From assembly GCA_017534425.1 (NCBI GenBank), contig JAFXWB010000052.1, forward strand, positions 1 to 57,757: a DNA stretch of 57,757 nt, in the 5' to 3' direction. Both the position numbers and the translations under genes were made by a program. Positions 23,892 through 55,941 of this stretch are shown piece after piece. The notes under the pieces were generated by a model. It did no database searches. It was not told the DNA's origin and saw nothing but the letters and a program-made list of their open reading frames with translations. This DNA comes from Bacilli bacterium (GTDB lineage: Bacteria; Bacillota_I; Bacilli_A; RFN20; CAG-826). Every line of letters begins with the position of its first letter. Position 1 is the first letter of the stretch.

Positions 23892-24388
23892 TGAGATTAG
23901 ATGTACTTAAACTTCCATATACAAAGGTCTTTGAACTAAAAGAAGATATAGTTTTTGACCCAGAAGTTTTCGTATGCCATATTCCATTAATTAGTGTTGA
24001 ATCTTGTCATGCTGAGCTTAAAGCTCAAAGATTTGAAGAATTTATTTATGTGAACCTTTCAATTAAAGCTAAAGTAGTACTTCAATGTTCATATACATTA
24101 AAGAACTTTGAAACAACTATTGAAGGAAGCGATGAACTCCATTTTGCTCCTTCAAAAGACGAAGATGAAGATTGTATTGAATATAAGGGCACTTCAATTG
24201 AAATGGATCACTACATTTTTAATCTATTAAGTGCTTCTATTCCACTTTCTCCAAAAGCTCCAAATGCTACTGCTACAAAGTCTGGAAAAGGCTATCGAGT
24301 GCTTTCTGAAGAAGAGTTTTTAAAAGAGAAAGAAGAACAAGGCAATTCTCAATTTGATGCATTAAAGGATTTGGAGTTTGATGACTAA
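23891..24388 (+). CDS. YceD/DUF177-family protein
   Basis: LQCSYTL, ASIPL and C-terminal FDALKDL resemble DUF177; size fits. Confidence 0.75.
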   Translation: MRLDVLKLPYTKVFELKEDIVFDPEVFVCHIPLISVESCHAELKAQRFEEFIYVNLSIKAKVVLQCSYTLKNFETTIEGSDELHFAPSKDEDEDCIEYKGTSIEMDHYIFNLLSASIPLSPKAPNATATKSGKGYRVLSEEEFLKEKEEQGNSQFDALKDLEFDD

Positions 24389-25316: not shown

Positions 25317-25327
25317 TAAATGAAATG

Positions 25328-25356
25328 AAGGCCACATAAAATTGTGGCTTTCTTTT
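25328..25356 (+). terminator. Terminator between rsmH and ftsA
   Basis: AAGGCCACA-TAAAAT-TGTGGCTTT followed by a T-rich tail. Confidence 0.7.
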
Positions 25357-25407
25357 AATATCCTTGATATATCGCTTTTTAATATATACAATATATTGGG
25401 TGAATAT

Positions 25408-26619: not shown

Positions 26620-26628
26620 TAAAGGAGA

Positions 26629-38702: not shown

Positions 38703-38716
38703 TGTAAGCGTTATCT
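38703..38716. promoter_or_regulatory. cre/LacI-family operator-like site
   Basis: TGTAAGCGTTATCT fits the TGWAANCGNTNWCA consensus except for the last base; TATAAT at 38794-38799 downstream. Confidence 0.6.
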
Positions 38717-38836: not shown

Positions 38837-40033
38837 ATGAGAAAATTAAGATTAATTACTATGCTTTCTGCATTCATTCTTGTTGCGGCAGGTGCTTTAG
38901 GACTTGCGAATTTAAAAGAAGGCAAGAAAGCTCAAGTTGCTGAAGCATCTGAACACGCAATTGCTTTAGGCAACAGCGGAAAGATTTTTTTGCAACTAAA
39001 TACAAGCGATTGGAGATCAACAAGTTCAAAAATTTGCTTATATATGTTTAATAACTCAGTAAGCAAAAGCGCTTGGGGTTCATTTGTAACTCCTTCTTCA
39101 GGATCAAGATTTGTTGAATACTCATATTCACTAGATTTTACTCCAAATCAATGTATTGCCTGGCGTGTTGACCCGGGTGTTGGTACTATGGGCGATTGGT
39201 GTTGGGAAAATGATCGTGGCAATAGTGCTATATGGTCAACAACTAACGACACAACATTTAATCATGTCGTTTATTTAGGAAATTATTATCAAAATAGTAA
39301 ATGGACTGAATCAGGGGCATACGACTTAAATGCAGTTGTTAAGGGCGGATCAAGTGACAATTGGTCTGTTGCTACTGTTAATACACAATTAACACATGCA
39401 AAAGTTAATGGTTCAGATAATTTAGAAGTTTTTGGTGAAGTTTCTTTACCTGCAAACACTTATTTTAAAGTTTTAAAAGGTGATTCAACTTGGTGTGGCT
39501 CTTATAGCGCATATTCATCAATTTCATCAAATTTTAGTGGTGGTGGCGAAAGCAACATCCATAATACTGCTGCTGGAACATATGAGTTTTATTTTGATTA
39601 TGATGGTCAATCAACGTACATAACCGATCCTGTAATTGCTGCGGCTGATGAATGGTCTCAAGATTTCCTTTCAACTGTTGGTTGCGATTCTACTGGTAAA
39701 AATGCACCTACTGGTTGGGCAGCAAATGCATCCACTTATAGTGCATTATCTGGCTCTGTAAAGAATTACATTTATGCTGCTTCTGCTAAAGAAGATGGAA
39801 CATATACAGAACAAGCAGTTGCTCGCTATGATGCTGCATTAAGAAGTCACCCATCATTAACAAAATTTATTGTTAATAGTTCAAGTCAAGCTAGAGGCGC
39901 TAATGTTAACGTTAATCCATTAGCAAGCAACTCAAATAATTCAAATATTGTAATTGCTATTGTTATTGTTTCTTTAGTTTCAGTGACTGCTATTGGTGGA
40001 TACTTCTTCATCAAGAGAAGACAAGAAAACTAA
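38837..40033 (+). CDS. Surface protein: signal peptide, putative starch-binding modules (CBM26-like and SusE/F-like), helical C-terminal domain, TM anchor with basic tail
   Basis: Trp-rich N-terminal domain; VSLPANTYFKV...W...NF..NI...AGTYEFYFD module; C-terminal IVIAIVIVSLVSVTAIGGYFFIKRRQEN. Confidence 0.6.
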   Translation: MRKLRLITMLSAFILVAAGALGLANLKEGKKAQVAEASEHAIALGNSGKIFLQLNTSDWRSTSSKICLYMFNNSVSKSAWGSFVTPSSGSRFVEYSYSLDFTPNQCIAWRVDPGVGTMGDWCWENDRGNSAIWSTTNDTTFNHVVYLGNYYQNSKWTESGAYDLNAVVKGGSSDNWSVATVNTQLTHAKVNGSDNLEVFGEVSLPANTYFKVLKGDSTWCGSYSAYSSISSNFSGGGESNIHNTAAGTYEFYFDYDGQSTYITDPVIAAADEWSQDFLSTVGCDSTGKNAPTGWAANASTYSALSGSVKNYIYAASAKEDGTYTEQAVARYDAALRSHPSLTKFIVNSSSQARGANVNVNPLASNSNNSNIVIAIVIVSLVSVTAIGGYFFIKRRQEN

Positions 40034-40054
40034 TTTAGGTAGTTCTAATTAATT

Positions 40055-40083
40055 AAGCCAATCCATATTGGGTTGGCTTTTTT
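40055..40083 (+). terminator. Intrinsic terminator
   Basis: AAGCCAATCC-ATATT-GGGTTGGCTT-TTT. Confidence 0.85.
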
Positions 40084-40128
40084 AAAACATAAATAATAAC
40101 GATAAATCCTTATTTTAATGTTTTCTCC

Positions 40129-40192
40129 TTGACTGGGTAAATTCCGAAGAATAGTATATTCTTATAAGATGTTTGTAAGCGCTTTTACAAAC
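40129..40192 (+). promoter_or_regulatory. Starch operon promoter with a downstream cre/LacI-type operator
   Basis: TTGACT(40129)-17-TAGTAT(40152). GTTTGTAA-GCGCTT-TTACAAAC at 40171-40192. Confidence 0.7.
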
Positions 40193-40242
40193 GTAAACAT
40201 TTCGTTTAATATCCTAATGATGGTCGCCCGGAGGAAAATAAG

Positions 40243-42405
40243 ATGAAAAAAAGTCTATTTCTCGTGACGGTTAGCTTAGCTGTTCCGTTCCTTTTTTCAT
40301 GTTCAAACGAAGATGCTATAGTTGCTCTCGAATCCATTTCTCTAGACAAAAGTAGTGTAACACTCAAAGTTGGTGAAGAAACAACATTAAAGGTAACCAA
40401 AAATCCTGCAAATGCGACCGCAGGTTTTCTTTGGGAAACTTCGAATCATGATTCTGTTACAGTTACTGCTGGAAAACTTCATGCATATTCCGTTCCTAAG
40501 GATGGACAAGATGTTGTTATTACAGTTATGAATAAAGAGAAAACTATTTCTGCATCTTGTTCTGTTCATGTTGATCCAAAAGACCCGCCAGCTCCAGCCA
40601 CTACTGATGGCGTAACCATTAGTGTTAACAGGCTAGATATGGTTCTCGGAGAAGATGACGCAAATTTAATTGCAACAGTTACTCCTTTAGATGCTGGTAA
40701 TAGAGATATTACATGGACTATTTCTGAGGGTGGTGTTGTTTCAAAAGTTAGTGAAACTCAACCTGATGCTAATGCAAGCACTTTAGTTGCTCAAAAGTCT
40801 TCCGTTTTAACACTTCATGCTCAGTCGGCTGGTTATGCAACCGTAACTGCAACAGATGAAAGTGGTGAATTTTCAGCGCAAGCAATTGTTGTCGTTTCAA
40901 TGCCTGCAGAAATTCACTATGTAGACGCGATTAATTTTGTTAATGATGATGCAACAATTATTGTTGGCGGCACTACTCAAAACCCAATTTCATATCATCC
41001 ATCTAATGCTATTGACAAAGGTGTTACTTATTCTTCAAATAACGAAGCTGTTGCTACTGTAAATCCAACTACCGGTGTTGTTGAAGGTCAATCAATTGGC
41101 GATGCATTAATTACTGCAACATTAGTTGCTAATAATGCTATTACAGATAGTTATGAAGTTCATGTTGTAGCAGATAGTCAAATTTTAAATGTTTATCATG
41201 ATTCAATTCTTAACACTGTTGATTTACAACTTAAAGACGGTGCAGGAACCGAATATGTAATATATAATTACTTACTTTCCAAAAATGATGAATTTATCGG
41301 ATTTATCCATGGAGTAAATTATGGTTTTGATGTTTTAAAAGATGGTGGAGTAAGTTCTAATTTTGAAATCGGCTCACACACTAACTATTTAAAGGCAAAA
41401 GAAACCATTTTATGTGATATTTATATTGAAACAGGTGAACCTGATGGTTCTGGAAATAGAATCTACATTGATACTCACACAATGATGAGTCTAGCTTCCG
41501 GAGCATCTGATTGGGCATATAATCCAATTTCATTAAAGCCAAGTTCAGATTCAGAATATCTTGTAGAAAATATTGCTTTAACAAAAGGTTCAAAATTTGT
41601 ATTCAATATTCGTCAAACATATTTCCACTTTAGTGATTTAAAGAGTGATTCTCCTGTTAAAGATTATTTTGAAGGTGATGTTGACAACAATTTTGTAGTC
41701 AAGTTTAGCGGAACATACACAATATATGTTGAAACTGTTACTGCTGATGGAAACGGTGACTTTATTTATATTGATGGAGCACCATCAGGAAACGCACAAA
41801 TTTTAAGAAACGGTGCTGGTGATCCTGAAACTCCAATTGCTCTTTCCTTAAAACCAGGTTTCCATAATGAATTTTTAATTCATAGTATTACTTTAGCTGT
41901 CGGAGATAAGATTAAATTCTTCATGGATGACACTTATTTTGCCCTTAAATCTGGTGGATATAGTGACAAATTCGCATATGATAATGGAACAAAATATTTA
42001 ACTTGTAATACTGCCGGAACATATGATTTTTATGTCAAATTCTTAGGAGATGACTTAGGAATTTATGTAACTGGTCCAGTTCAAAATGTAACCTATACAG
42101 TTGAAAATATTCCATCTTGGTGGACTGATGCAAGTGCTCATATTTATGCTTGGGCTTTTGAAGACGGCATCGCTAATAGCGGTCATTGGTATGAAGGCGC
42201 AGCAAATGGTTCAAATATGGAATTTTTAATTCCATCAAATTATAACAAAGCCATCTTTGTTCGTGTTAGCGGAGCAATTGCTGATTTATCAGTTTGGAAC
42301 GCAAGCACACTTGATGGAATGGAAAAATGGAATAGAGCAGATGATGTTGCTTTATCAGGCGCTACATCAACTATTTCATTTGATTTAGGTGCATGGCACG
42401 ACTAG
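40243..42405 (+). CDS. Non-catalytic lipoprotein: three Big_2 Ig-like domains, three SusE/F-like modules, C-terminal CBM26-like domain
   Basis: Lipobox LFSC. Big_2 patterns (LKVGE.TTL..T..P.NAT; P.NA.DK.VTYSSNNEAVATV). Three E(Y/F).....L..G..F...G.Y..Y modules. PSWW...IYAWAF...W...IFVR. Confidence 0.65.
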   Translation: MKKSLFLVTVSLAVPFLFSCSNEDAIVALESISLDKSSVTLKVGEETTLKVTKNPANATAGFLWETSNHDSVTVTAGKLHAYSVPKDGQDVVITVMNKEKTISASCSVHVDPKDPPAPATTDGVTISVNRLDMVLGEDDANLIATVTPLDAGNRDITWTISEGGVVSKVSETQPDANASTLVAQKSSVLTLHAQSAGYATVTATDESGEFSAQAIVVVSMPAEIHYVDAINFVNDDATIIVGGTTQNPISYHPSNAIDKGVTYSSNNEAVATVNPTTGVVEGQSIGDALITATLVANNAITDSYEVHVVADSQILNVYHDSILNTVDLQLKDGAGTEYVIYNYLLSKNDEFIGFIHGVNYGFDVLKDGGVSSNFEIGSHTNYLKAKETILCDIYIETGEPDGSGNRIYIDTHTMMSLASGASDWAYNPISLKPSSDSEYLVENIALTKGSKFVFNIRQTYFHFSDLKSDSPVKDYFEGDVDNNFVVKFSGTYTIYVETVTADGNGDFIYIDGAPSGNAQILRNGAGDPETPIALSLKPGFHNEFLIHSITLAVGDKIKFFMDDTYFALKSGGYSDKFAYDNGTKYLTCNTAGTYDFYVKFLGDDLGIYVTGPVQNVTYTVENIPSWWTDASAHIYAWAFEDGIANSGHWYEGAANGSNMEFLIPSNYNKAIFVRVSGAIADLSVWNASTLDGMEKWNRADDVALSGATSTISFDLGAWHD

Positions 42406-42415
42406 GAGGATGCTT

Positions 42416-45091
42416 ATGAAGAAAAAAAGACTTTTACTATTAGCAACACTTCCAATGTTGGCTTTAGCAGGTTGTACAATTGGTCAAAAAGAAAAAGAAG
42501 AGACTACACCTGAAGAGCCAGCAACAAATCCTGATACTGAAAACTTGGATGGCGATGATTACGATACATGGGCCAATTCATGGTCTAAACCTGGCCATGT
42601 TTATTTCCATTACAATCGTGGATCATCTGCAAATGACTACACAAACTATTGTTTGTGGGTTTGGCCATTCTATCCAGATTCATTAGAAGGAACTCTATGG
42701 GGTTATGGAGGAAAAACTCAAGTTTCCGACACATTAACCTTAAAACCGATGTCTACTGCTTTCATGACAAATAAAAATCTTGGATTCAGTGGCGACACAC
42801 CTTATAAGGATAAATTTGGTGTTATTTATGATGTTGATTTAACTAACACCGACTTAGTCGGTGGTAAAACAGGTACTTCAGTATCATTTGAAGGCACTAC
42901 TGAAATTGGTTTCCTCTTCCCAAGAGTTGACTCTATGGACGGAAGTAAGAACTGGATTAGTGATGGTGGTACTGAAAATTATATTGAAGATTACGCTAAA
43001 CCAGAAAACTGGCGTTCTGTTGGAGATGGAAAAGCATTACATATTTTCACTCAAACAGGAAGCTTAGAAGATTATAGATATTTTGCTGGAAGTGGCAGTG
43101 ACTATGTTGAACCAGTTAAAAATCCAATCGATGAAGATACAACAGGTCAATATAGATCTAAATTTGACACTATTACAGCATGTACAGATCCAACACCGAC
43201 AGATGATAAATTCAAATCAATGGGCGTTGGTTATCAAATCTTTGTTGCCTCATTTAGAGACTCAAACGGTGATGGTATCGGTGATATCCGCGGTATTATT
43301 GATTCTTTAGATTATTTAGAAGATTTAGGCGTTCAATGTTTATGGTTAACTCCAATTCAAAAATCAGGTTCATATCATGGATATGACACTATTGATTACA
43401 AGGAAGTTGATAAACGTTTCGGAACCATGGAAGACTATGAAGAATTACTCACAAAAGCTCATAGTCGTGGAATGACAGTCTTAATGGACTTAGTTTTAAA
43501 TCACACTTCAAAATCAAATCAATGGTTCACTAAATCAAAATGGGCAAAAGAAGAAGATGGTTTCAAATGGAGAGACGTCTATACTTGGAAATACGAAACA
43601 GATAAAATCCAAAAAGCTAAGTTAGAAAAACAAGGCAATAAATGGGTTGTTACAGATTACGATAGAATAACCGTTAAAGAGGATGCCGAATCAGATAGTC
43701 CATCATGGTTCAGAGATGGTGAATCTCACTACTATTATTATGGTAAATTCGGTTCTGGCATGCCTGAAATTAACTATGAAAGTAAAGCTACAAGAGATTT
43801 AATTATCGATACTGCTAAATTCTGGATTGATAAAGGTCTTGACGGCTTCAGACTTGACGCTGTTAAACATATTTATATGTTTGATGAATATTGCAAAGAA
43901 AATGGTGATATCGATGGTCAAAATACTGACTTTATTATCACTGACGTTGGCGAAAAGACATCATACGATGAAGAAAAAGGAAAATACGTTCCAAAGAAAT
44001 ATGACTATTCTTCAAATTTAACAAAGAACGTCAACTGGTGGAAAGAATTCTCCTCAAAACTTAAAGCTTATGCTTCAAGCAAATCAAAACCATGTTTCTT
44101 AGTTGGTGAAAACTTTGATGGTTGGGGAACAAGAACTGCTCCATATTATCAAGCTCTTGATTCTCAATTTGATTTCTCCAATTATTATCACGTACCAGCA
44201 TGGATATATAACACAGACGCAGGCGCTTCCTCTTTTGATACTAAAGTAGATCAAGCTGGACAAGCTTTTGAGACTTATGATGCGTTTGCATATGGCGGAG
44301 ATGATTATCCATATGGTGATGGCGGAGACAAGATTCCTGGCGGAAAACGCTCAGACTTCATTAATGGTGCATTTACATCTAACCATGACGTTATGAGACT
44401 TATTAACCAAGCAAATGGTATTGGAAATAAAGACAGCACTACAGCTGCTGATAATGTTAAATACGGTGATGAATATGCTGAAGGAAAAGCTAAATTCCAA
44501 GCCGCTGTTACTATCTTAAATCCTGGACTTTCTTGGATTTATTATGGTGATGAACTTGGTATGACATCAAATACATATGAGCATATTGAAAAGTATGGTT
44601 CAGAGAACAATATGGATATTTGGTATCGTCAACCTTTCCTTTGGAAAGAAAGGAAGGTTCGTGCCAATTATAAATCTGGTCAATATGCCTTTGAACTTGA
44701 TGAACACAATCGTCATTTGGTTAATAATGATGAAGGTATTTCTTACAAAGCAGTCTTAAATGATGAAGGAAATGTTACAGGTCATAAGATTGCAACACTT
44801 TCAACAATGTATCCTTACTTCAAAACTCTTACTAACATTAAGAGAAATTATCCAAAAGGCGCAATGATTAGATTTGAATATTCAAGTGAGAATGTTTTAA
44901 GAATCGTTGTTTCTCAAGGCGCGGAAGATAAGATGGTAATCTTCTTAAATAACGGCAGAAATACAAATGAATACCTCATGAATGTTGATGCTGGATTTAG
45001 TTACTTAGATTCTACAGAAGGCGCAGCAAATGCTGCTGGTGGAGATATTGGTAAATCTTCATATGGCGTTTGTGCCTTTATAAAGGGGTGA
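42416..45091 (+). CDS. Lipoprotein GH13 alpha-amylase (AmyA/SusG-like) with an N-terminal CBM41-like domain
   Basis: Lipobox LAGC. HYNR...Y.LWVW. DSNGDGIGD, YHGYD, DLVLNH; catalytic GFRLDAVKH, VGEN, NHD; YYGDELGM. AGGAGG RBS before ATG 42416. Confidence 0.9.
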   Translation: MKKKRLLLLATLPMLALAGCTIGQKEKEETTPEEPATNPDTENLDGDDYDTWANSWSKPGHVYFHYNRGSSANDYTNYCLWVWPFYPDSLEGTLWGYGGKTQVSDTLTLKPMSTAFMTNKNLGFSGDTPYKDKFGVIYDVDLTNTDLVGGKTGTSVSFEGTTEIGFLFPRVDSMDGSKNWISDGGTENYIEDYAKPENWRSVGDGKALHIFTQTGSLEDYRYFAGSGSDYVEPVKNPIDEDTTGQYRSKFDTITACTDPTPTDDKFKSMGVGYQIFVASFRDSNGDGIGDIRGIIDSLDYLEDLGVQCLWLTPIQKSGSYHGYDTIDYKEVDKRFGTMEDYEELLTKAHSRGMTVLMDLVLNHTSKSNQWFTKSKWAKEEDGFKWRDVYTWKYETDKIQKAKLEKQGNKWVVTDYDRITVKEDAESDSPSWFRDGESHYYYYGKFGSGMPEINYESKATRDLIIDTAKFWIDKGLDGFRLDAVKHIYMFDEYCKENGDIDGQNTDFIITDVGEKTSYDEEKGKYVPKKYDYSSNLTKNVNWWKEFSSKLKAYASSKSKPCFLVGENFDGWGTRTAPYYQALDSQFDFSNYYHVPAWIYNTDAGASSFDTKVDQAGQAFETYDAFAYGGDDYPYGDGGDKIPGGKRSDFINGAFTSNHDVMRLINQANGIGNKDSTTAADNVKYGDEYAEGKAKFQAAVTILNPGLSWIYYGDELGMTSNTYEHIEKYGSENNMDIWYRQPFLWKERKVRANYKSGQYAFELDEHNRHLVNNDEGISYKAVLNDEGNVTGHKIATLSTMYPYFKTLTNIKRNYPKGAMIRFEYSSENVLRIVVSQGAEDKMVIFLNNGRNTNEYLMNVDAGFSYLDSTEGAANAAGGDIGKSSYGVCAFIKG

Positions 45092-45096
45092 TTTGT

Positions 45097-46137
45097 ATGA
45101 AGAAAACTCGCATTTTAACTTTCTTATTAGCGTTTTCTATGATGGGTGTTACATCATGTGTTAAATACAATGGTGTTCCACAAGTCAAAGAAGAAGAATC
45201 ATCCGCTATAACAGTTACTTTATCTGCTTCCTCAATGGATCTAAAAGTTGGTGATGGTGGTAAAACCTTTACCGCTACTTTAGCTTCTGAAGAAGTTCAA
45301 ATTGAAGATAAAAAAGTTGCTATAGCAAGTGATAATGAAGAAATTGCTGTCACTGATGTCAAAGAAGCTGAAGATGGCGCAAATATTAGAGTTAAAGGTC
45401 TAAAAGAAGGATCTGCTAATATTACTGTTACTTCTAAACAAGATCCAACCGGAAAAGCTGTCTTAAAAGTAAAAGTTACTAGTGGAGATGGCACATTTGC
45501 TGTTGAATCAGTTTCAGTAAAGGACGAAAGTGTTACCTTACTTGAAGGTGAAACAAGTCAAATCGAATGGACTGTTTTACCAGAGAACGCGACTGTTAAA
45601 GACGTTGAATTCTCAACCAGCGATGCTAATGTTGCAACAGTTAATTCAACTGGTTTAATTACCGCAGTTAAAAAAGGAACTGCAGAGATTGCTGTTACTA
45701 CTAAGAGCGGTGGTAAAAAAGCTTCAGTTGCAGTCACAGTTAATGAAGATACAACTTTAGTTGAAAATGCATACTACTTAATGGGCGGTGACGAAGCAAG
45801 TGATAGTACTGTTTGGACTACTCCAAAGAAATCACGCGAGTTTACACTTAATGAAGGTGGCGGCTCAGGAAAAGAATATTTTGTCACATTCGAATGCTCT
45901 GCTGGAGAATCCTTTAAAGCCGTTCAATATAAAGGAACAAACCCATTAATTTGGTTAGAAATTTATGACTTCGGTGGTTCAAATCACAGTGGTGCTAAAG
46001 ATGGATGCGCAACAGTTGATGGTGGTAACCTGAAAATTGCAAGTGCTGGTAAATACACTATTTATTTGGATATTGGCATTCATGATGATACAGACACTAA
46101 CTGTGTCAAATATTGGATCCAACAAGCAGTTAATTAA
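45097..46137 (+). CDS. Non-catalytic lipoprotein: two Big_2 domains plus one SusE/F-like module
   Basis: Lipobox TSC. VLPENATVKDVEFSTSDANVATV. YYLMG...W...EY.......GESFK...W...GNLKIASAGKYTIYLD. Confidence 0.7.
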   Translation: MKKTRILTFLLAFSMMGVTSCVKYNGVPQVKEEESSAITVTLSASSMDLKVGDGGKTFTATLASEEVQIEDKKVAIASDNEEIAVTDVKEAEDGANIRVKGLKEGSANITVTSKQDPTGKAVLKVKVTSGDGTFAVESVSVKDESVTLLEGETSQIEWTVLPENATVKDVEFSTSDANVATVNSTGLITAVKKGTAEIAVTTKSGGKKASVAVTVNEDTTLVENAYYLMGGDEASDSTVWTTPKKSREFTLNEGGGSGKEYFVTFECSAGESFKAVQYKGTNPLIWLEIYDFGGSNHSGAKDGCATVDGGNLKIASAGKYTIYLDIGIHDDTDTNCVKYWIQQAVN

Positions 46138-46151
46138 TAGGAGGATTGAAT

Positions 46152-49100
46152 ATGATAAATAAGAAAATTTTATTCGGAATCCTTACATCTTCAGCTTTAA
46201 CGCTTGGTATTTTCGTGCCTTCCTTCTTTAAGAAGGTCAATGTCGAAGATCCAGGTGATGATCCAATTGTTTATAACAAGGATTCTTCAGTAGTTAAATT
46301 TGAAGAACCTCATTTAAGAGGCACATCAAGAGCTGTTGCTGAAGAAGATGAAGAAGATGAATCCATTGGCCCAGTCTCTACAGTCAAACTTCACTATGTG
46401 AATGATGACAATAAGTGTGCTTCAAGAGCATTCTATATTTGGGCAAATGGTATTGATGGTGTTGAGTATAGTGATGAACATAATGGAACAGATATTGTTG
46501 AATATGCTGCTGACGGTTCATCTATGACTTTAACAATTAACATTAACAAATCTAATCCTGATCCAAGATTTAAAGAATTTGTTGGTCTTCCATCAATTTT
46601 CTACATTATTAAATACAAAATGATTAGTGAATCTAATCTTAACTGGGGCGGACAATCTGATGACGTTGAACTCGTCTTTGCAGAATTCCCACCAGTCAAT
46701 GAAGTTGTTGAAGTTTGGTCAACTCCTGCCGCTGGCGGTGGTATGGCTCAATTCGCAACTGAAGAAGAAACTAAAGTTGACGGTATTAAACTTGCAAAAT
46801 TCTCGGACTGGAGAACAATTCGTTGTACCGCAACTGAAGGCACCAAGACTGTTAAGTGGGATTTATATGCCTTTGACGAAAACTATTACAGAATCAAACT
46901 TAAAAAACGTGAAGCTATTAAGAAAAACTTCCTTGTTTTAAGTGGCACAAATAAACTCACTGATACCAATAAGGAATTTAATATTGAATTCCCATATACA
47001 GCCAAAATTAATATGGTATATTCTTTAGTTTCTAAAGAAGTTAGCTCAACAAGCGATTTAGCAAAGACTGTATTCGTTGGTTGTGATGCCTTATATGATA
47101 CTGCCAAGTTCAATAAATATTATTGCTATGATGGCGATGATTTAGGTATGACATATACCAAAGACTTTACTACTTTCAAAGTTTGGTCACCAGTTTCTGC
47201 AAATATGACTCTTCTTATCTATGATAAGGATAATGATACACCTGTTGTTTATGGTGGTAAGTCAGATTCATATAATAGAGGCTGGCATATGTCCTATAAC
47301 GAAGGTGGTATTTGGGAACTTACTGTCCTTGGTGATTTAAAAGGATATTATTACAATTTCCAAGTTGATAATTTAAATGGTACAACCACAACTGTTGACC
47401 CATATGTTACTGCAGTTGGATGTTCTGGTGTTAGAGGTCTTGTTTATGATAAGAAAGACACTAATCCAGAAGGTTGGGACGATTTACCATTAGAATGGGA
47501 CGGAAAACCTGGTTACGATATTAAATCACCACAAGAATTAGCAATTTACGAAGTACATGTTCGTGATTTTACTGGTGATTCTAGTTGGGTCAGCAATAAC
47601 AACATCAAAAATGGGACATATAAAGCAATGGTTGAACCTGGAACAAGACTTCCAGATCATCCAACTGTTACAACTGGATATGATCATTTAAATGAACTTG
47701 GCGTTAACGCAGTTCAATTAATGCCAATCTTTGATGCTGATAATGATGAATCTCCACGTGGTATTAATAAATACAACTGGGGTTACAATCCTCAAAACTA
47801 TAATGCTGTTGAAGGTTCATATAGTTCAGATCCTCATGATGGCTTAGCAAGAATTAGAGAACTTAAAGAATTAGTTCTTGGAATGTCAAAAACTGATGCA
47901 CATACTCGTGTAACAATGGACGTTGTTTATAACCACGTATCATCAGTCTCATCCAATCCATTTAATAAGTTAATGCCACGTTATTACTTTAGATATGATG
48001 AAAACGGCGAACTTTATGATGGCTCTGGTTGTCATAACGAGGTTAAATCTGAAGCTAAGATGTGTTCTAAGTTCATTGTAGACTCAGTTTATATGTGGGC
48101 AAAAGAATATAAGATTAAAGGTTTCCGTTTTGACTTAATGGGACTTCTTGATTATAAAACCATGAATGCTGTTAAAGAGAAGCTATCAACCTTAGACAAA
48201 GACATTTATGTCTATGGTGAAGGTTGGACCTCTGTTGCTGGCTACAACGGTAGCTGGAATGGTACTGGTAGTACTTCAACATATCAGGTTTATAAATACT
48301 GTAATAACTTTGACCCTGAAACTGGTGTTGATGATACAGATAAATGTTATTTAGGCTGTTTCAATGATACCGGAAGAAATGGCGTTAAAGGTGAAAATGG
48401 TGCTTGGGGCACTGAAGAAGTTTATCCACAAACTGGATTTATGCAAAAGAGTGGATCTGAATTTAATGATGAACCAAATCGTGTTGCTGATATGGTTTGG
48501 GGTATCCATAGAAATCAATCTAACTATGCAAAACAAACCGTTAACTATATTTCCTGTCACGATAACTGGACAATAGTTGACCATTTCTATCAAACAATGC
48601 ACGAGCACACTGATAATCATCACGCTGCTGGTATTGTTGATATTATTCATGCATCCTTAGCATCTCACGCATTAGTATTTGCTTCTAATGGTGTTGCATT
48701 CATGTTAGGCGGAGAAGAAATCTTTAGAACAAAAGAAGTCAGTCAATCTATGATTGATAATAAAGATGTTTTACCTGCTACATACACAAAACTTTATGAT
48801 CGTTATGTTTCTCATAACTCATATAACTCTCCAATTGAAGTTAACTCATTTAAGTGGGGTAACAAAGTTTCTGTTACATTAGGTGGACAAACTGCTGTTG
48901 ATAATGACGGAACAGAAAATTCTCTCCACTATAATGATGCTTGGAAGAGCTTAGTGAGAATTCATAAAGATTCAAATATCCACTTTGATGCTCCATCAAG
49001 AAAAGGCGAGATTTGGCCAAGCGGAACAACAAGCGCTGGAAGTAGCTATGTCAATCTTTGTTGGACAAACGGTTCTGCCTTAGGCATTCAATTAGATGAA

Positions 49101-49259
49101 ATGTTCATTTATGTTGCTGGTAGACATGGTGGAAGCTTAGGATATGACTTTAACGTTGAAGATCACAAACTATTTAGTTATGGTGCATCAGCTAATGCTG
49201 GAACCATTAATTTTAGAAGTGAAGGCTTTGGCGTATTTGTCACAAGGAGGACAGCATAA
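46152..49259 (+). CDS. pulA: Type I pullulanase (GH13) with an N-terminal signal/anchor, CBM41-like and CBM48 domains
   Basis: TTFKVWSP, IYEVHVRDF, YNWGYNP, MDVVYNH, GFRFDLMG, YGEGW, NYISCHDN. Confidence 0.92.
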   Translation: MINKKILFGILTSSALTLGIFVPSFFKKVNVEDPGDDPIVYNKDSSVVKFEEPHLRGTSRAVAEEDEEDESIGPVSTVKLHYVNDDNKCASRAFYIWANGIDGVEYSDEHNGTDIVEYAADGSSMTLTININKSNPDPRFKEFVGLPSIFYIIKYKMISESNLNWGGQSDDVELVFAEFPPVNEVVEVWSTPAAGGGMAQFATEEETKVDGIKLAKFSDWRTIRCTATEGTKTVKWDLYAFDENYYRIKLKKREAIKKNFLVLSGTNKLTDTNKEFNIEFPYTAKINMVYSLVSKEVSSTSDLAKTVFVGCDALYDTAKFNKYYCYDGDDLGMTYTKDFTTFKVWSPVSANMTLLIYDKDNDTPVVYGGKSDSYNRGWHMSYNEGGIWELTVLGDLKGYYYNFQVDNLNGTTTTVDPYVTAVGCSGVRGLVYDKKDTNPEGWDDLPLEWDGKPGYDIKSPQELAIYEVHVRDFTGDSSWVSNNNIKNGTYKAMVEPGTRLPDHPTVTTGYDHLNELGVNAVQLMPIFDADNDESPRGINKYNWGYNPQNYNAVEGSYSSDPHDGLARIRELKELVLGMSKTDAHTRVTMDVVYNHVSSVSSNPFNKLMPRYYFRYDENGELYDGSGCHNEVKSEAKMCSKFIVDSVYMWAKEYKIKGFRFDLMGLLDYKTMNAVKEKLSTLDKDIYVYGEGWTSVAGYNGSWNGTGSTSTYQVYKYCNNFDPETGVDDTDKCYLGCFNDTGRNGVKGENGAWGTEEVYPQTGFMQKSGSEFNDEPNRVADMVWGIHRNQSNYAKQTVNYISCHDNWTIVDHFYQTMHEHTDNHHAAGIVDIIHASLASHALVFASNGVAFMLGGEEIFRTKEVSQSMIDNKDVLPATYTKLYDRYVSHNSYNSPIEVNSFKWGNKVSVTLGGQTAVDNDGTENSLHYNDAWKSLVRIHKDSNIHFDAPSRKGEIWPSGTTSAGSSYVNLCWTNGSALGIQLDEMFIYVAGRHGGSLGYDFNVEDHKLFSYGASANAGTINFRSEGFGVFVTRRTA

Positions 49260-49840
49260 TGAAAATTAGAAATTTAGCATTAGCGGTCTTGGCAGTCTCT
49301 TTACTTGGTGGCTGTGCAAAAGAAGAAGTATATACTCCTACAAAAGGTGGTATTGTTGATACTTTGCACAACGAAATTCACGTTCCAAGTTTAGAAGACT
49401 TACAAAAAGGTGGTTTCGATAAAGAAAAAGACGTTTCTAAAATCTACATTACCGATGATGATGGTTTTAAATACATCTATGATGTAGAAACAGAACAATA
49501 TGTTTTAGCACAAGAAACTGATACAACAATTAATTTCTACTTTGATGCAAATCAGACAACAAGAATTGTTGGTGATGAACAAATCGATGCTCCAATCTAC
49601 GTTGCAGAGTGGTTCATGATTAAACCATTAGGTGCTTGCCCAGAAGAAGTAAATACAGAAGCAAAGGTATTAGAAATCGGTAGAATGTTCGGATTTGAGC
49701 CAAAACAAGGTTTTGATCATTTCGTTGGCTTCTCAATGTATTCTTCATGTTTAGGCGATGAAGAACACCTTTGGAATTTCGAAAAAGACTTTAAACAACA
49801 AGCAGTTACCAATTTATATGGTATCTGGGTTGATGAATAA
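49259..49840 (+). CDS. Small lipoprotein with a degenerate InlB B-repeat (Flg_new)-like domain
   Basis: Lipobox LGGC; C-terminal FVGFS...LWNFEKD...TNLYGIW. Confidence 0.6.
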   Translation: MKIRNLALAVLAVSLLGGCAKEEVYTPTKGGIVDTLHNEIHVPSLEDLQKGGFDKEKDVSKIYITDDDGFKYIYDVETEQYVLAQETDTTINFYFDANQTTRIVGDEQIDAPIYVAEWFMIKPLGACPEEVNTEAKVLEIGRMFGFEPKQGFDHFVGFSMYSSCLGDEEHLWNFEKDFKQQAVTNLYGIWVDE

Positions 49841-49857
49841 GGAGGTGATAATTATTT

Positions 49858-51138
49858 ATGAATAAAACTAAATATTTATTACTTGCATCTTCATTATTAG
49901 GTATGGTTGCTATATCTGGATGTAAATTTGAATTTAGATATTCAACAACTCCGTACCCGTTTGATGATGTTCTTCCAGACGATGATGACGATGGTGGAAG
50001 TTACGAAGTAAAAGTTTGGTGCGATACATCAATTCTTACTTTAACTAAAACCCAATTAGCATCATTTGAAGCTGTTAATAATGGTAAATATAAACTCACT
50101 TTCAACGTTGAACCAATGTCCGAAGGTGAAGCAGCTTCAAAAATGATTCAAGACGTTCAACTTGGCGCGGATGTTTTCTGTTTCGCTCAAGACCAATTAG
50201 CATCCTTAAAGATTGCTGGCGCTCTTGGTGATATTACCGGAAACATGGCCTTAGGCGTTAAATCTGATAATCCAAAAGGCGCTGTTAATGCTGCAACTTA
50301 TGGCGATACTCTCTGCGCATTCCCGATGACAAGCGACAATGGTTATTACATGTATTACGATAAACAAATTTTATCTGATACTGATGTAAAAGATATGTCG
50401 ACTGTTATTCAAAAAGTTAAAGCAGTTAATAAACGTATTAATTATCCTGTTTTCTCGAACGCTTTCTATTCAGCAAGTTACTTCATGGCTACAGGTTGTT
50501 ACTCTAAATGGACAGTCAATCCAAAAACAGGAAACTTTGTGTCTTACGAAGATAACTATAAAGAAAAGGGACTTAAAGCATTGAAAGCTTTAAGAGAATT
50601 AAAGGCAGCCGATTTAGTTGCACCAAACGATCAAACAAATAAGCTTGGTGATACTGCTGCGGTTGCTATTTCAGGTATTTGGAATTATAAAGCCGCTGAA
50701 AAGGCATTAGGAAATAACTTAGGTTGTTGTGAAATGCCTTCATTTACAGTAGATGGTGAAACATTCCATATCTCTTCATTCTCAGGTTATAAACTTATAG
50801 GAGTTAAACCTCAAACAGATGGTAAAAAAGCTTCCGTTTGTAGAAAAATTGCTCGTTATCTTACAAATCAAGAGTGCCAACTTCAAAGATTCAACGAAGT
50901 TGGATGGGGTCCAAGTAACTTACTCGCATCTCAAGATGAAAAAGTTTTAGCTCAACCTGGACTTAAAGCTCTTGCGGAACAATTACCATATTCTCAAGAG
51001 CAAGGACTTATGCCTTCATCATGGTGGTCAAACTGTGCAACACTTGCATCTTCAGTTAAAGGAGATTCTAGTGACGCTCAACTTGAAGAAGCGTTAAGCA
51101 TTTATACTTCTAACCTTGATGAACTATTAGGCGATTAG
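49858..51138 (+). CDS. Maltose/maltodextrin ABC transporter solute-binding lipoprotein
   Basis: Lipobox ISGC; ADVFCFAQDQL, AFPMTSDNGYYMYYDK, ISGIWN, FSGYKLIGV; gene context. Confidence 0.88.
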   Translation: MNKTKYLLLASSLLGMVAISGCKFEFRYSTTPYPFDDVLPDDDDDGGSYEVKVWCDTSILTLTKTQLASFEAVNNGKYKLTFNVEPMSEGEAASKMIQDVQLGADVFCFAQDQLASLKIAGALGDITGNMALGVKSDNPKGAVNAATYGDTLCAFPMTSDNGYYMYYDKQILSDTDVKDMSTVIQKVKAVNKRINYPVFSNAFYSASYFMATGCYSKWTVNPKTGNFVSYEDNYKEKGLKALKALRELKAADLVAPNDQTNKLGDTAAVAISGIWNYKAAEKALGNNLGCCEMPSFTVDGETFHISSFSGYKLIGVKPQTDGKKASVCRKIARYLTNQECQLQRFNEVGWGPSNLLASQDEKVLAQPGLKALAEQLPYSQEQGLMPSSWWSNCATLASSVKGDSSDAQLEEALSIYTSNLDELLGD

Positions 51139-51155
51139 GAAAGGAGGGAAATAAA

Positions 51156-52655
51156 ATGACAGAAATTACTGGTTTAGATTATCTAAAGCTAACTAAATGG
51201 CAGCGCTTTGTATATAATCTCAAACACTTCTTATTTAAGATTCCTCTATTCTTTAAGAACTTAGGTATTAAGATTTACAAATTAATTATTAATTTGGGCA
51301 AAGGAATTTATAATTACTTTAAGACCTTAATCTTAACCTTTATTCATGGCGATTGGAAAACAAAAGTCTCATTCTTAATTATGGGCTTTGGCTCCTTCGC
51401 TAGAAAACAAATTTTAAGAGGTATTCTTTTTCTTGGATTTGAAATCGCATTTATCCTTTACATGATTTTCTATGGTGGCTATTACCTTGGAAAATTAAAT
51501 TCACTGGGTTATTACTATGAAGCAACTCAAACCATTGATGGCGTTGTTGTTTATGGTGTTAACTCATTTGATGTCCTCTTGTTTGGTATTATGTCGATTT
51601 TCTTCATCCTTGCCTTCCTTTGGACATGGAATTTGAACATTAAACAAAATCGTATTAATGAACAAATTGAAAAGGATAATAGACATATCGCAACTACTAA
51701 AGATGATTTAAGAGCAATAGTTGATAAAGAATTCCATAAGACACTTCTTTCCTTACCAACACTCGGTATTATTGTCTTTACATTGCTTCCAATCTTCTTC
51801 ATGATTTTGGTTGCATTTACAAGTTACGATAAGAATAATATGCCTCCAAATAATTTATTTGGATGGGTAGGCACAGATAACTTTAAACAGTTATTTATGT
51901 GGTCCGCTGGATCAAATAACTTCTCATCCACATTTGGAGCCATCTTAATTTGGACACTTATTTGGGCATTCTTTGCAACATTCTCCAACTATTTCATTGG
52001 TATGATGATTGCAATGCTTATTAACAAGAAAGGTATTAAGCTTAAAAAGCTTTGGAGAACAGTCTTAGTTTTATCTATTGCTATTCCACAATTCATTAGC
52101 CTTCTTTATGTTGGTCAAATGTTCCAGCCAGATGGAATTATTAACAATTTCATCACTAATTTAGGTGGAAAAGCGATTGACTTCTGGGGCAATCCAACAA
52201 TTGCACGTATTACCGTTATTGTTATTAACATTTGGATTGGCATTCCTTACGTAATGCTTATTACGACAGGTATTTTGATGAATATTCCTGCCGACTTATA
52301 TGAATCCGCTAATATCGACGGTGCAAGTCCATGGCAACAATATTCAAAGATTACTCTTCCATATATGTTATTCGTTACAGGCCCATACTTATTAACTTCG
52401 TTCACCGGAAACATGAATAACTTTAATGTTATTTACTTGTTAACTGGTGGTGGACCAAAGAATAACCAATTAGCAGCATCTGCTAATGGTGATACCGACT
52501 TACTTATTACTTGGTTATTTAACTTGGCAATTTCTAATCAAGATTATAAATTGGCTGCTGTTATAGGTATTATGGTATTTATCGTTGTAGCACTTATTTC
52601 ACTTATTGTTTACAACCTTATTCCATCCACACGTAATGAGGAGGAATTCCAATAA
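51156..52655 (+). CDS. Maltodextrin ABC permease (MalF/MdxF-like)
   Basis: Multiple TM helices; WIGIPY...IPADLYESANIDGA EAA loop; NMNNFNVIYLLT. Confidence 0.92.
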   Translation: MTEITGLDYLKLTKWQRFVYNLKHFLFKIPLFFKNLGIKIYKLIINLGKGIYNYFKTLILTFIHGDWKTKVSFLIMGFGSFARKQILRGILFLGFEIAFILYMIFYGGYYLGKLNSLGYYYEATQTIDGVVVYGVNSFDVLLFGIMSIFFILAFLWTWNLNIKQNRINEQIEKDNRHIATTKDDLRAIVDKEFHKTLLSLPTLGIIVFTLLPIFFMILVAFTSYDKNNMPPNNLFGWVGTDNFKQLFMWSAGSNNFSSTFGAILIWTLIWAFFATFSNYFIGMMIAMLINKKGIKLKKLWRTVLVLSIAIPQFISLLYVGQMFQPDGIINNFITNLGGKAIDFWGNPTIARITVIVINIWIGIPYVMLITTGILMNIPADLYESANIDGASPWQQYSKITLPYMLFVTGPYLLTSFTGNMNNFNVIYLLTGGGPKNNQLAASANGDTDLLITWLFNLAISNQDYKLAAVIGIMVFIVVALISLIVYNLIPSTRNEEEFQ

Positions 52656-52656
52656 T

Positions 52657-53553
52657 ATGAAAAATAAAGAAAAGAAATCGATGGGTATTGCGAAAAGACG
52701 TCGTATTGTAAATACCGCTTCTTACGTTACCTTATCAGTTATTTGTATTGTTTGGGTCCTTCCATTCATCTTCCTACTTCTCCAGTCATTTAGAGTAGAA
52801 AGTTTCGGTCCAACAGGTTATATCTTCCCGAAGAAATGGGGTATTGATAATTATGCATACTTATTTGGCTACGATATGGCCACTAAATCGGCATCAGAGT
52901 CTAACTTCCTACAATGGTACATTAATACGTTTATAATCGCTTTATGTGCCGCTGCAGGACAAACTATTATGCAGATTATGATGGCATATGCCTTATCAAG
53001 ATTCCGTTTCAGACTTCGTAAGCCACTTATGAATGCAATGCTTATCTTAGGTATGTTCCCTGGTTTCTTAACTATGATCGTCTTATATCAAGTTCTTAAA
53101 TCAGTTGGAGTTACCGGTGATAACGCTGTTCCGGGCTTAATCATTGTCTCTATTGCCTCATCAGGTATGGGTTATTACATTGTAAAAGGTTTCTTAGACA
53201 CAATGCCTAAATCACTTGATGAAGCTGCAATGGTTGATGGTGCAACTAGATTCCAAGTCTTCTACAAGGTTATTCTCCCACTTTGTAAGCCAATTGTTAT
53301 TTATACAGTTCTTACATCATTCATGGGACCGTGGGGAGACTTCGTCTTCGCATCTACAATCGCCCTTGGTTCTCAACAAGGTATGAACGTTGCAGCAGGT
53401 CTTTATTCTTGGCTTGACGCAGCGCATATCACAGAATACTTTACAAGGTTCTGTGCTGGTGGTGTTCTTGTCGCCATTCCAGTTATGGTTCTATTCATGT
53501 TCTTACAAAAATACTACGTCGAAGGTGTTACCGGCGGCGCGGTTAAAGGATAA
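52657..53553 (+). CDS. Maltodextrin ABC permease (MalG/MdxG-like)
   Basis: [45 protein letters not shown] before ATG 52657. Confidence 0.92.
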
Positions 53554-53570
53554 AAAAGGAGGCTTATATT

Positions 53571-54863
53571 ATGGCTCGTGTACAATTAGAAAATGTAAAG
53601 AAAATTTATTCAGGAAACGTTACTGCTGTTCATGATTTTAATCTTGATATTGCAGACAAAGAGTTTGTCGTTTTCGTCGGTCCTTCCGGATGTGGTAAAT
53701 CAACTACATTGAGAATGGTCGCTGGACTTGAAGACATTAGTGAAGGTATTTGTAAAATTGATGGTGAAGTCGTTAACGATTTACAATCAAAAGATCGTCA
53801 CATTTCAATGGTCTTCCAGAACTACGCTCTTTACCCACATTTAACAGTCTTTGAAAATATGGCCTTCCCACTCCGTCTTGATAAGAAGGAGCACGTTTAT
53901 CCTTGGAGCGAAGAAGAACTTCAAAAGATTAATAAGAAAATTGAAGCTTTAAAAGCAAAAGGCGGACAAGAAGACAAGATCGCTAAACTTGAAGCTTCAA
54001 AAGAAAAAGGTAAAGTTGTTAAAGGTTATTCCCAAGACGAAATTTTCCAAAAAGTTATTGATGCTGCTAGAGTTTTAGGTATTACCCAATACTTAACAAG
54101 AAAACCAAAAGCATTATCAGGTGGTCAACGTCAACGTGTCGCTATCGGACGTGCAATGGTTAAAGATTGTAAGGTCTTCTTAATGGACGAACCACTTTCT
54201 AACCTTGACGCTAAATTACGTAACCAAATGAGAGCAGAAATTATCTTACTCCGTAAGAGAATTAATACTACATTCATTTACGTTACACACGACCAAACAG
54301 AAGCTATGACTTTAGGTGACAGAATCGTTTGTATGAGAGATGGCTATATTATGCAAGTTGGTAGTCCAACCCAATTATTTGATATGCCAGATAACTTATT
54401 TGTCGCTCAATTTATTGGTGCTCCAATGATGAATACATTCCATACCAACTTGGTAGAAAAAGGTGGCAAATATCACGTTGAATTCTTTGGTGCCGAATTC
54501 CCAATTACAGGGGAGAAAGGTGAAATGTTAAAAGAAAAAGGTGTTCAAACACGCTAGATTCTTCTTGGTGTTAGACCAGAACACATTTCTCTTGCAAGTG
54601 AGAAATCAAAAGCATCTATTCCAGTAACTATTCAAGTTAACGAAATGATGGGTAGTGAATATCACTTACACGTTGTGACTAATGACGGCACAAAGATTAT
54701 TGTTAGAATTCCAACTATTAACTTAACCGATGCTGAAAGAGAAAGCTTGGTTGGTGGTAAAGTAATTAATATTACTTTCGAAGCAAAAGCAATGCACTTC
54801 TTTGATCCAAAGACAGAAGTTAATATTCTTGCTTCAGGTAATCCAGTTCCATCAGCTAAATAG
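53571..54863 (+). pseudogene. msmX: MsmX/MalK-family sugar ABC ATPase interrupted by an in-frame TAG at 54555-54557 (nonsense mutation, readthrough or sequence error)
   Basis: [25 protein letters not shown]. After the TAG the same frame continues ILLGVRPEHI...EMMGSE...MHFFD to the stop at 54863 (430 codons if read through). Confidence 0.8.
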
Positions 54864-54871
54864 GAGGGAAT

Positions 54872-55273
54872 ATGAAGAAAGAATTAACTCCTGAACAAAA
54901 AGTAAAGCAAAATAGAATCTATAAGATTGCTTATATTTCAATTGTTGGATTCTGTGGCGCAGCAGCTTTAACTCTTTTTGGTGTTGCTCAATACACAAAA
55001 GCAAAGCTTAATAGTGCTGACATTCAAGTCATGGCTGCTAAAAATGTTTTATCTACTTTAGGAGATGATGCTTTAGAAGATGAATCAAGTATTTATCACG
55101 ATAAAGCTCTTTACTTTAATGATCAATATGAACATTATAGTAAAATCTCTAACAAGCATTTAAAACAATATAATGCCTTATCAATTACCGCTTATTCTCT
55201 TTCCATTTTAACTCTCGTAAGCTTTGGTTTAGTCCTTAAACATAGTGATGCGAGAAAAGAAAAAGAAGATTAG
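54872..55273 (+). CDS. Hypothetical two-TM membrane protein, last gene of the starch operon
   Basis: AGGAGG RBS, two hydrophobic segments, 8-bp gap after msmX. Confidence 0.75.
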   Translation: MKKELTPEQKVKQNRIYKIAYISIVGFCGAAALTLFGVAQYTKAKLNSADIQVMAAKNVLSTLGDDALEDESSIYHDKALYFNDQYEHYSKISNKHLKQYNALSITAYSLSILTLVSFGLVLKHSDARKEKED

Positions 55274-55283
55274 TAATTAACTA

Positions 55284-55325
55284 AAAAGCACCTAGATTTC
55301 GACCTAAAGTATCTTAGGTGCTTTT
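55284..55325 (+). terminator. Operon terminator
   Basis: AAAAGCACCTA...TAGGTGCTTTT inverted repeat. Confidence 0.75.
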
Positions 55326-55383: not shown

Positions 55384-55863
55384 ATGAAAACAAAATCAAA
55401 GTACTTTCTTGGCTTAACAATTCTTACATCAGCATTATTTTTATTTTGTTGTTTCAGTATCATTTTTTATGTTTTAAGAATTGACACTGTTCCAGAATCT
55501 CAAAAGGTCGAAAACGGAATGGCTTTTGTTTTTCTTTTCCTTCATTTAATCATTGTTGCTTTTGCTATTTATATGTCTTTAAAAGCATATATTAAAAAGA
55601 GTCAATTACTAGTTGTTGTGATGACAAATGAACATGGTACGAAAAACCCAAAATCCTATCGAAATACCCTAATTTTCTCGATAATTTTTGGTATTTTTGG
55701 TCTTTGGTTTTTCTTAAATTCCTTTGGTATTTTACACGTTATGAAGTTCTTCTCATTGTGCTTAAATTTAGCATTAACAAATGTTGGACTTTTTATATTT
55801 TCTGTTACTTTGTACATGCATTTTTATGAACCGCCAGCCGTGGAAGAAACACCAAAAGAGTAA
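55384..55863 (+). CDS. Hypothetical four-TM membrane protein
   Basis: 159-aa ORF with four hydrophobic segments, lying between two hairpins. Confidence 0.75.
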   Translation: MKTKSKYFLGLTILTSALFLFCCFSIIFYVLRIDTVPESQKVENGMAFVFLFLHLIIVAFAIYMSLKAYIKKSQLLVVVMTNEHGTKNPKSYRNTLIFSIIFGIFGLWFFLNSFGILHVMKFFSLCLNLALTNVGLFIFSVTLYMHFYEPPAVEETPKE

Positions 55864-55941
55864 GCACTTACATATTAAAAGAGGGGTTTAATTATTAATA
55901 ATTACTCCCATTTTTATTTTATAGTGATAAAATGTTTTTAT

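Follow-up and report, generated by a model that had tools for sequence, protein, structure and literature searches.

Four described systems stand closest to the locus reported here: the starch utilization system (Sus) of Bacteroides thetaiotaomicron, the amylosome of Ruminococcus bromii, the Gram-positive polysaccharide utilization loci (gpPULs) together with the starch pathway of Eubacterium rectale, and the pullulanase of Bacillus acidopullulyticus. Passages of PMC9112005 equate the domains of SusE and SusF with the X25 module, place X25 also in R. bromii Sas20, Sca5 and Sca3 and in the B. acidopullulyticus pullulanase, and describe in Sca5 a dual-tryptophan platform with a spacing of 41-46 residues. 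A gpPUL, in the definition given in part of PMC5320581 (Sheridan et al. 2016), holds at least one enzyme that degrades polysaccharides, a system for carbohydrate transport and a transcriptional regulator in one locus. Here we describe a locus at 38.8-55.3 kb on the + strand of contig JAFXWB010000052.1 (57,757 nt, hereafter the window) from an uncultured Bacilli bacterium (assembly GCA_017534425.1), where a map of the open reading frames (ORFs) gives eleven genes, lettered A-K. The locus is probably an extracellular system for harvesting alpha-glucan (starch or glycogen), sited on the cytoplasmic membrane of wall-less gut Bacilli, and its non-catalytic proteins carry modules that profile comparison links to the ones in SusE and SusF.

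The genes are listed below, with lengths in amino acids (aa) and with the two modules of the non-catalytic proteins, which are described further on, named X and Y.

38837..40033, + strand: A, exported protein with an X module and a tentative CBM26-like module; no Pfam family
40243..42405, + strand: B, 720-aa lipoprotein with three Big_2 domains (1.2e-20), three X modules and one Y module
42389..45091, + strand: C, GH13 alpha-amylase lipoprotein (Pfam Alpha-amylase, 3.8e-69)
45097..46137, + strand: D, 346-aa lipoprotein with two Big_2 domains and one X module
46146..49259, + strand: E, probable type I pullulanase with CBM48 and an N-terminal transmembrane/signal segment (TIGR02104, 4.8e-135)
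49259..49840, + strand: F, small lipoprotein with a conserved C-terminal ~100 aa; no Pfam family
49858..51138, + strand: G, solute-binding lipoprotein of an ATP-binding cassette (ABC) importer (SBP_bac_8, 7.9e-25)
51156..52655, + strand: H, MalF-like permease (NF008232, 5.2e-55, 187 bits against a cut-off of 392)
52606..53553, + strand: I, MalG-like permease, likely start near 52657 (NF008231, 4.3e-44, 151 bits against 261)
53571..54864, + strand: J, MsmK/UgpC/MalK-type ATPase of 430 codons with an in-frame TAG (NCBIfam)
54872..55273, + strand: K, 133-aa protein with two hydrophobic segments, the last gene of the operon

The original prediction for this DNA had linked ten genes by gaps of 17 bp or less, and the ORFs bear this out: by their coordinates B-K (40243-55273, all on the + strand) overlap or are separated by at most 17 bp, a rule that requires reading J through the in-frame TAG at 54555-54557, to which the prediction makes no reference, and the stop codon of E overlaps the start of F (46146-49259 and 49259-49840). 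A (38837-40033) is a separate upstream gene with its own terminator-like hairpin. The prediction's two Ig-stalked non-catalytic lipoproteins (B and D, with three and two Big_2 domains and lipoboxes), SusG-like lipoprotein amylase (C), anchored pullulanase (E) and protein with two transmembrane segments (K) were all recovered by domain and motif analysis. The 346-aa gene call of D is also found in the collection searched. The prediction's 'B-repeat lipoprotein', F, is indeed a lipoprotein (lipobox LGGC), and the B-repeat part is a lead only, there being no Pfam match.

The locus can be set against the four known systems in turn. First, as in the B. thetaiotaomicron Sus, there are lipid-anchored non-catalytic proteins with tandem modules, profile-related to SusE and SusF, along with a lipid-anchored GH13 amylase – SusG is among the closest solved relatives of C – and a dedicated importer; unlike Sus, there is no outer membrane, import is of the MalEFG/MsmK ABC type, a pullulanase belongs to the surface set and the stalks are Big_2 domains. 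Neither SusD (PF07980) nor the SusC/TonB-dependent family (PF00593) has a match in the 98%-complete genome, the B. thetaiotaomicron control being positive, and the locus is therefore not a Sus system. The proposal that it is 'Sus-like' thus stands for the functional logic, in which SusE/F/G-type parts feed an ABC importer, and not for membership of the Sus family. That likeness is stronger than analogy because the non-catalytic proteins carry SusE/SusF-related modules, and SusE/SusF-type surface lipoproteins, one mark of a Sus-like polysaccharide utilization locus, are present at the level of modules only. Second, the R. bromii amylosome (Sas20, Sca5 and Sca3; Amy4, Amy10 and Amy12), as described in portions of PMC9112005, also has non-catalytic X25-built starch-binding proteins in a Firmicute, and E is close to Amy12 (3.1e-88), whereas here there is no dockerin, cohesin or sortase and the anchoring is by lipid or transmembrane segment on a wall-less cell. 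The locus is not an amylosome, a distinction that the prediction had drawn correctly. Third, GH13 enzymes lie beside an ABC sugar importer in one locus, as in gpPULs and in the E. rectale pathway, whose enzyme is reportedly wall-anchored. In contrast to gpPULs there are only operator-like sites and no regulator gene inside the locus – a Pfam scan found none among the ORFs of 36917-57756 – and because of this the gpPUL definition does not cover it. Finally, the X25 of the B. acidopullulyticus pullulanase (2wan; X25_BaPul_like) belongs to the same module superfamily, according to passages of PMC9112005, but here the modules sit on separate non-catalytic lipoproteins.

The comparison with SusE and SusF turns on regions that Pfam does not assign, namely the ~420-aa C-terminus of B after its Big_2 domains and ~120 aa of D. 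Local iterative hidden Markov model (HMM) searches recognise in them a module of ~100 aa, X, that accounts for repeats 1-3 of B, the C-terminus of D and the second domain of A, and that is also present in the amylase-adjacent lipoproteins of relatives and in A-like proteins; 77 local sequences contain 198 matches to the X HMM, with some of the proteins counted twice. A second module, Y, ends B. Their locations in the window are as follows.

41176-41472, 41482-41775 and 41794-42069, + strand: X modules of B (X HMM, E 1e-25 to 1e-29)
45775-46134, + strand: X module of D (X HMM, E 2.5e-16)
39335-39622, + strand: X module of A (X HMM, E 7e-13)
about 42091-42390, + strand: Y module (CBM26-like) at the end of B (Y HMM, E 6e-31)
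38978-39280, + strand: tentative CBM26-like first module of A, which keeps the three invariant W/R/W columns of Y

There are several indications that X is a relative of the SusE and SusF modules. First, when a profile of 40 X modules, drawn from the window and the genus loci only, is compared with 177,635 PDB sequences, the top three matches are SusE 4fch (6.4e-5), SusF 4fe9 (6.9e-5) and SusE 4fem (1.9e-4), and the next match is noise (0.087). Second, taken singly, 13 of the 40 modules match Pfam SusF_SusE (best 5.4e-5), with other families matching at most one module each; the C-terminus of D alone gives E 0.0029 against SusF_SusE. Third, in a bridge protein (P0039) X-family repeats stand next to a domain that scores 46 bits with Pfam SusF_SusE, for which the cut-off is 27.5. 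Fourth, a phmmer search with the C-terminus of B against 1.84 billion representatives returns 49 proteins, and among the 38 scanned for domains (11 short fragments were left out) Big_2 is found in 12, Flg_new in four, CBM26 in three, a GH13 catalytic domain in two, and CBM_20 and SusF_SusE in one each. Single-sequence PDB searches with B and with the C-terminus of D gave nothing useful, and Pfam X25_BaPul_like has no match to the modules of the window. The commonest conserved columns of the profile read W...FK...W/Y...N, with two aromatics 44 profile positions apart; they are complete in the X modules of D and A and partial in repeat 2 of B. In the HMMER alignment these columns fall on a W, K, Y and N of SusE, presumably the ligand residues of its Eb site. 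By profile comparison, then, the X modules are related to X25 (SusE/SusF-type) starch-binding modules.

Module Y is best called CBM26-like, judged from its similarities. One of 17 Y modules matches Pfam CBM26 (1.9e-7), and the ESM Atlas clusters nearest to the C-terminus of B are CBM26 families (0.91, 176-180 shared features), followed by the Bacteroidota DUF5111/DUF5114 families. The first module of A did not reach E 1e-3 with the Y HMM. Beyond the window, Y is present in several amylase-adjacent lipoproteins of relatives and in one paralogue of the same genome on another contig (L012 1888-2160, the end of a 422-aa open frame), and a 2255-aa GH13 protein from a public collection (P0027) has nine tandem copies at aa 1193-2254.

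The linkage of such lipoproteins to the amylase is conserved. Of the 36 other genomes examined in the genus, 21 have a full-length orthologue of C (45-65% identity), and linkage was counted in the 19 loci that were fetched around C orthologues and ORF-mapped. An X- or Y-module lipoprotein comes directly after C in 18 of the 19 (as the second gene in one of them); in the remaining locus E comes straight after C. The fetched stretch includes E in 16 loci, one of the other three ending with its contig, and 16 of the 19 show linkage of the amylase with a module lipoprotein and the pullulanase. The order E-F-G, then H-I-J-K as far as the stretch reaches, is kept in nine loci, and two more are cut at E. 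Five loci (L026-L030) form a second clade with an 1100-aa amylase, in which E is followed by giant Big_2/X-module lipoproteins and the J-like ATPase is an 826-852-aa fused protein 5′ of the amylase. Most relatives have a GH77 gene between the lipoproteins and E, and relatives have A-like genes within the locus or beside it. Upstream of C the order of genes is fluid, as the closest relative indicates: there (L011 11848-15974) three genes separate the B orthologue from the amylase, one GH77-like (from a reading of its N-terminus), one of 263 aa and one for a 624-aa lipoprotein that carries both X and Y modules. More broadly, the X family is present in 40 of 151 genomes and 20 of 47 genera sampled from the order, and in 22 of 399 scored genomes of a class sample, only four of them outside the order. 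The original prediction had named unconserved linkage of the non-catalytic lipoproteins to GH13 and ABC genes as a finding that would speak against it, and across related genomes that linkage is conserved.

The host had been predicted to be monoderm and probably wall-reduced, and its genome goes further. The assembly (1.34 Mb, 72 contigs, 97.98% complete, 6.21% contaminated) has no match to the transpeptidase of penicillin-binding proteins (PF00905), FtsW/RodA (PF01098), Mur ligase (PF08245) or sortase (PF04203), with control genomes positive, and since the penicillin-binding protein, FtsW/RodA and Mur ligase genes are not found at this completeness the host is wall-less. The window has mraW, an ftsA-like gene and ftsZ side by side at 24378-27747, with no mur or ftsI genes between them, the arrangement expected of a wall-less lineage. 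Genes for Lgt and LspA are present, so that the host is able to make lipoproteins. By its gene content the host is an uncultured, wall-less, small-genome, monoderm gut member of the class Bacilli, and DNA of the stretch is found in animal gut metagenomes. For one gut lineage of uncultured Tenericutes-like Bacilli, which we do not equate with the present genome, part of PMC7301438 reports that most genomes are without mraY and murG and that TGA is a stop codon.

Judged from their motifs, all the exported products are anchored by lipid or transmembrane segment, as had been proposed. Lipoboxes are present in B (LFSC), C (LAGC), D (VTSC), F (LGGC) and G (ISGC). A has an N-terminal signal or transmembrane segment and a C-terminal transmembrane segment (aa 367-385) followed by KRRQEN, and an N-terminal hydrophobic transmembrane/signal segment is the sole anchor of E. 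Dockerin, cohesin and SLH have no Pfam match in any of 12 products, a result that holds when the limit for the unassigned regions is relaxed to E 10, and no product of the locus has a C-terminal LPXTG, as predicted from motif reading; the sortase result above extends this to the genome. Because there is no wall to attach to, the exported parts would be held on the cytoplasmic membrane.

The two extracellular enzymes have relatives among solved structures. The nearest to C include H. orenii AmyA (7.8e-49) and SusG (2e-45), and its translation holds DLVLNH, GFRLDAVKH, GENF and SNHD, the four GH13 conserved regions. The likely start of C is an ATG near 42410-42416, the N-terminal domain of ~230 aa has a weak PUD match, and neither the X nor the Y profile picks out a carbohydrate-binding insert in C; the subfamily is presumably GH13_36, as for SusG. 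The solved structures nearest to E all belong to type I pullulanases, 2wan being the best (1.1e-93) ahead of Amy12, and E scores 451 bits with TIGR02104 (equivalog cut-off 504.5) and 1.7e-8 with CBM48. Its translation contains YNWGYNP, in which YNWGY is presumably the type I pullulanase motif. Genes for GH77 and glycogen phosphorylase are present in the genome on other contigs.

MalF, MalG and MalK are the best or near-best named matches of H, I and J, with J reaching 330 bits against the MalK equivalog (cut-off 568). The TAG of J at 54555-54557 is a stop codon in this assembly, beyond which the open frame continues through the usual C-terminal regulatory domain to 54864. Four J orthologues have K, E, K and P at this column, and Logan contigs of four public runs show G in place of the T, so that the codon reads GAG. 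The source sample may be among these runs, two of which have identical figures and could represent a single data set. The run that may be the source has this difference within a 5348-nt contig that is otherwise identical to the stretch. Because GAG is found in contigs of four runs, the TAG probably reflects an error of assembly or a minor variant; the importer itself is likely to be intact. Recoding of TAG was considered and ruled out: the genome has 33 TAGs that lie between long open frames, and all but this one mark ordinary junctions of genes, where a start follows a few codons later. In relatives, the MalF-like permease has an N-terminal extension of 180-200 aa (L013 17034-19076, L015 1-1942, L022 1-1477) and the ATPase a long charged C-terminal tail (482-528 aa in total; L017 17239-18687, L020 17319-18788, L023 91-1677).

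F and K are the least familiar members of the operon. The C-terminal ~100 aa of F has 20 invariant columns in ten orthologues; the orthologue profile finds no solved relative in the PDB, and the nearest named ESM Atlas family, Flg_new (0.86), to which the predicted 'B-repeat' corresponds, is a lead only. K has no Pfam family and a weak, non-significant SLATT match (E 0.0034), and its orthologues occupy the same position in L017, L019 and L020. Downstream of K, gene L (55384-55863) encodes a small membrane protein with four transmembrane segments that matches no known family; in L019 and L020 both K and L keep their positions behind the ATPase gene, and in L017 only K does.

Signals that may govern transcription were located around A and B-K as follows.

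38703..38716, + strand: operator-like site of catabolite-responsive element (cre)/LacI type 5′ of A, TGTAAGCGTTATCT (relaxed cre pattern)
40055..40083, + strand: intrinsic terminator-like hairpin and T-run 3′ of A (fold energy -17.7 kcal/mol)
40129-40157, + strand: promoter-like site TTGACT-17-TAGTAT, just 5′ of the operator-like site at 40174 (consensus scan)
40174..40187, + strand: cre/LacI-type operator-like site 5′ of B, TGTAAGCGCTTTTA (relaxed cre pattern)
55284..55325, + strand: terminator-like hairpin 3′ of K (fold energy -17.0 kcal/mol)

The consensus promoter/terminator scan missed both hairpins, which were then folded directly, and for promoters it was uninformative (54 promoter-like sites against 71 in shuffles), so the 'one promoter' of the original prediction cannot be shown. 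The relaxed cre pattern has only two matches in the 57.7-kb contig, both in the non-coding leaders of A and B; with 48 matches in the genome about two per contig are expected, and it is their placement rather than their number that is notable. The genome has two LacI-family genes, both on other contigs. Through their similar operator-like sites, A and B-K are probably under a shared LacI/CcpA-type regulator encoded elsewhere. No RNA runs are listed for 46146-55325, which is not evidence on expression.

Directly 3′ of the operon is a glycogen branching enzyme gene (CBM48, GH13, GlgB_N; 55924-57756, cut by the end of the window), so that intracellular glycogen metabolism abuts the uptake operon. 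Elsewhere in the window, the stretch 16204-20286 encodes first an 824-aa protein that has a Big_3 domain and then a 482-aa protein matching no family, and both may be further surface proteins; a RhuM-family gene at 33242-34447 (- strand) among housekeeping genes may be a mobile-element remnant.

We propose that A, B and D would hold X25-type and CBM26-like modules off the membrane, in B and D on Big_2 stalks, and that these modules would bind starch. C would cut alpha-1,4 bonds and E would remove alpha-1,6 branches; G would pass maltodextrins to the MalF/MalG-like permease H/I, powered by J; and inside the cell GH77 amylomaltase and glycogen phosphorylase would complete the breakdown. Both transcription units would answer to the regulator proposed above.

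Several points weigh against this interpretation. First, the link of X to SusE and SusF is one of E-values of ~1e-4 and not of structure, and that of Y to CBM26 is weak, the matches of the Y profile in the PDB being non-significant (R. bromii Amy4, 0.046; Amy10, 0.17). Second, repeats 1 and 3 of B are without most of the conserved W/K/W/N positions and may not bind. Third, 40 relatives yield a single true orthologue of B, and a collection of 5.8 billion proteins yields three further clusters; with such poor conservation the role of B may be dispensable or fast-changing. Fourth, E, H, I and J all score below the NCBIfam equivalog cut-offs, so that their exact specificities are not assured. Finally, there is the stop codon in J.

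Among the other explanations, the one that survives best concerns the substrate, which may be not dietary starch granules but soluble alpha-glucans, such as glycogen from lysed microbes or the host, or maltodextrins released by other degraders. Type I pullulanase and GH13 amylase act equally well on glycogen, the branching enzyme gene lies directly downstream (55924 onward), and a 1.3-Mb genome suggests a dependent lifestyle. Tandem stalked modules of starch-binding type, though, usually mark the capture of insoluble or large polymers (SusE/F and Sas20/Sca5, in passages of PMC9112005), and the DNA is found in animal gut metagenomes; neither point excludes glycogen, and we regard a soluble substrate as possible, if unlikely.

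It is improbable, in our estimate, that the X25 lipoproteins, C, E, F and the ABC importer are joined in a stable stoichiometric surface complex, a 'utilisome' on the cytoplasmic membrane. The operon is tight, with genes overlapping or nearly touching, F is small, far better conserved than the binding lipoproteins and always between E and G, and there is a precedent in the Bacteroidota utilisomes (described in part of PMC7618045), but no interaction domains – neither dockerin nor cohesin – are recognised. A complex prediction with G (aa 45-426) and F (aa 85-193) scored 0.00 against a mark of 0.32, which is not evidence either way. We are equally doubtful of a bolder version, in which wall-less gut Bacilli would have built a membrane counterpart of the Bacteroides utilisome, with the modules, C, E and F arrayed around the ABC importer as one machine, and would have obtained X25 by gene exchange with Bacteroidota in the gut rather than by ancient descent.

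Least probable is an ordinary maltodextrin/glycogen operon in which A, B and D have no part in starch capture and are surface proteins of a generic, fast-evolving sort (adhesins, or agents of antigenic variation): the scarcity of B orthologues and the aromatic positions lost from its repeats 1 and 3 would fit, as would the Big_2-only nature of most B matches in relatives, the many large Big_2 lipoproteins across the genus and the great variation in length and modules of the gene between C and E, but an X/Y-module lipoprotein follows the amylase in nearly every locus despite this sequence turnover, the modules match SusE/SusF by profile and co-occur with GH13, CBM26 and CBM20 in unrelated proteins, and an operator-like site is common to A and B-K.

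We therefore return to an alpha-glucan harvesting system on the membrane as the preferred reading. Its components and general strategy are already known, and because X25 modules have been described in Firmicutes (passages of PMC9112005), the earlier suggestion of an undescribed apparatus holds for the lipoprotein format and the lineage and not for the module. In the literature searched we found no description of such a locus in wall-less Bacilli, subscription papers being mostly not covered. What appears to be new is that a conserved operon of such Bacilli encodes separate lipid-anchored SusE/F-type binding proteins on Ig stalks, along with two families of modules (X and Y) that lie below Pfam thresholds.

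Animal guts commonly contain uncultured wall-less Bacilli with small genomes, whose way of feeding is scarcely understood, and this locus provides a testable model of it. It suggests that a cell with neither wall nor outer membrane uses the type of module found in SusE/SusF and in the amylosome, tethered by lipid to its sole membrane. X and Y would add diverse, unclassified modules of starch-binding type to CAZy-style classification, and the locus may serve as a natural setting in which to ask if glycan-binding proteins at the surface depend on a complex for their function.

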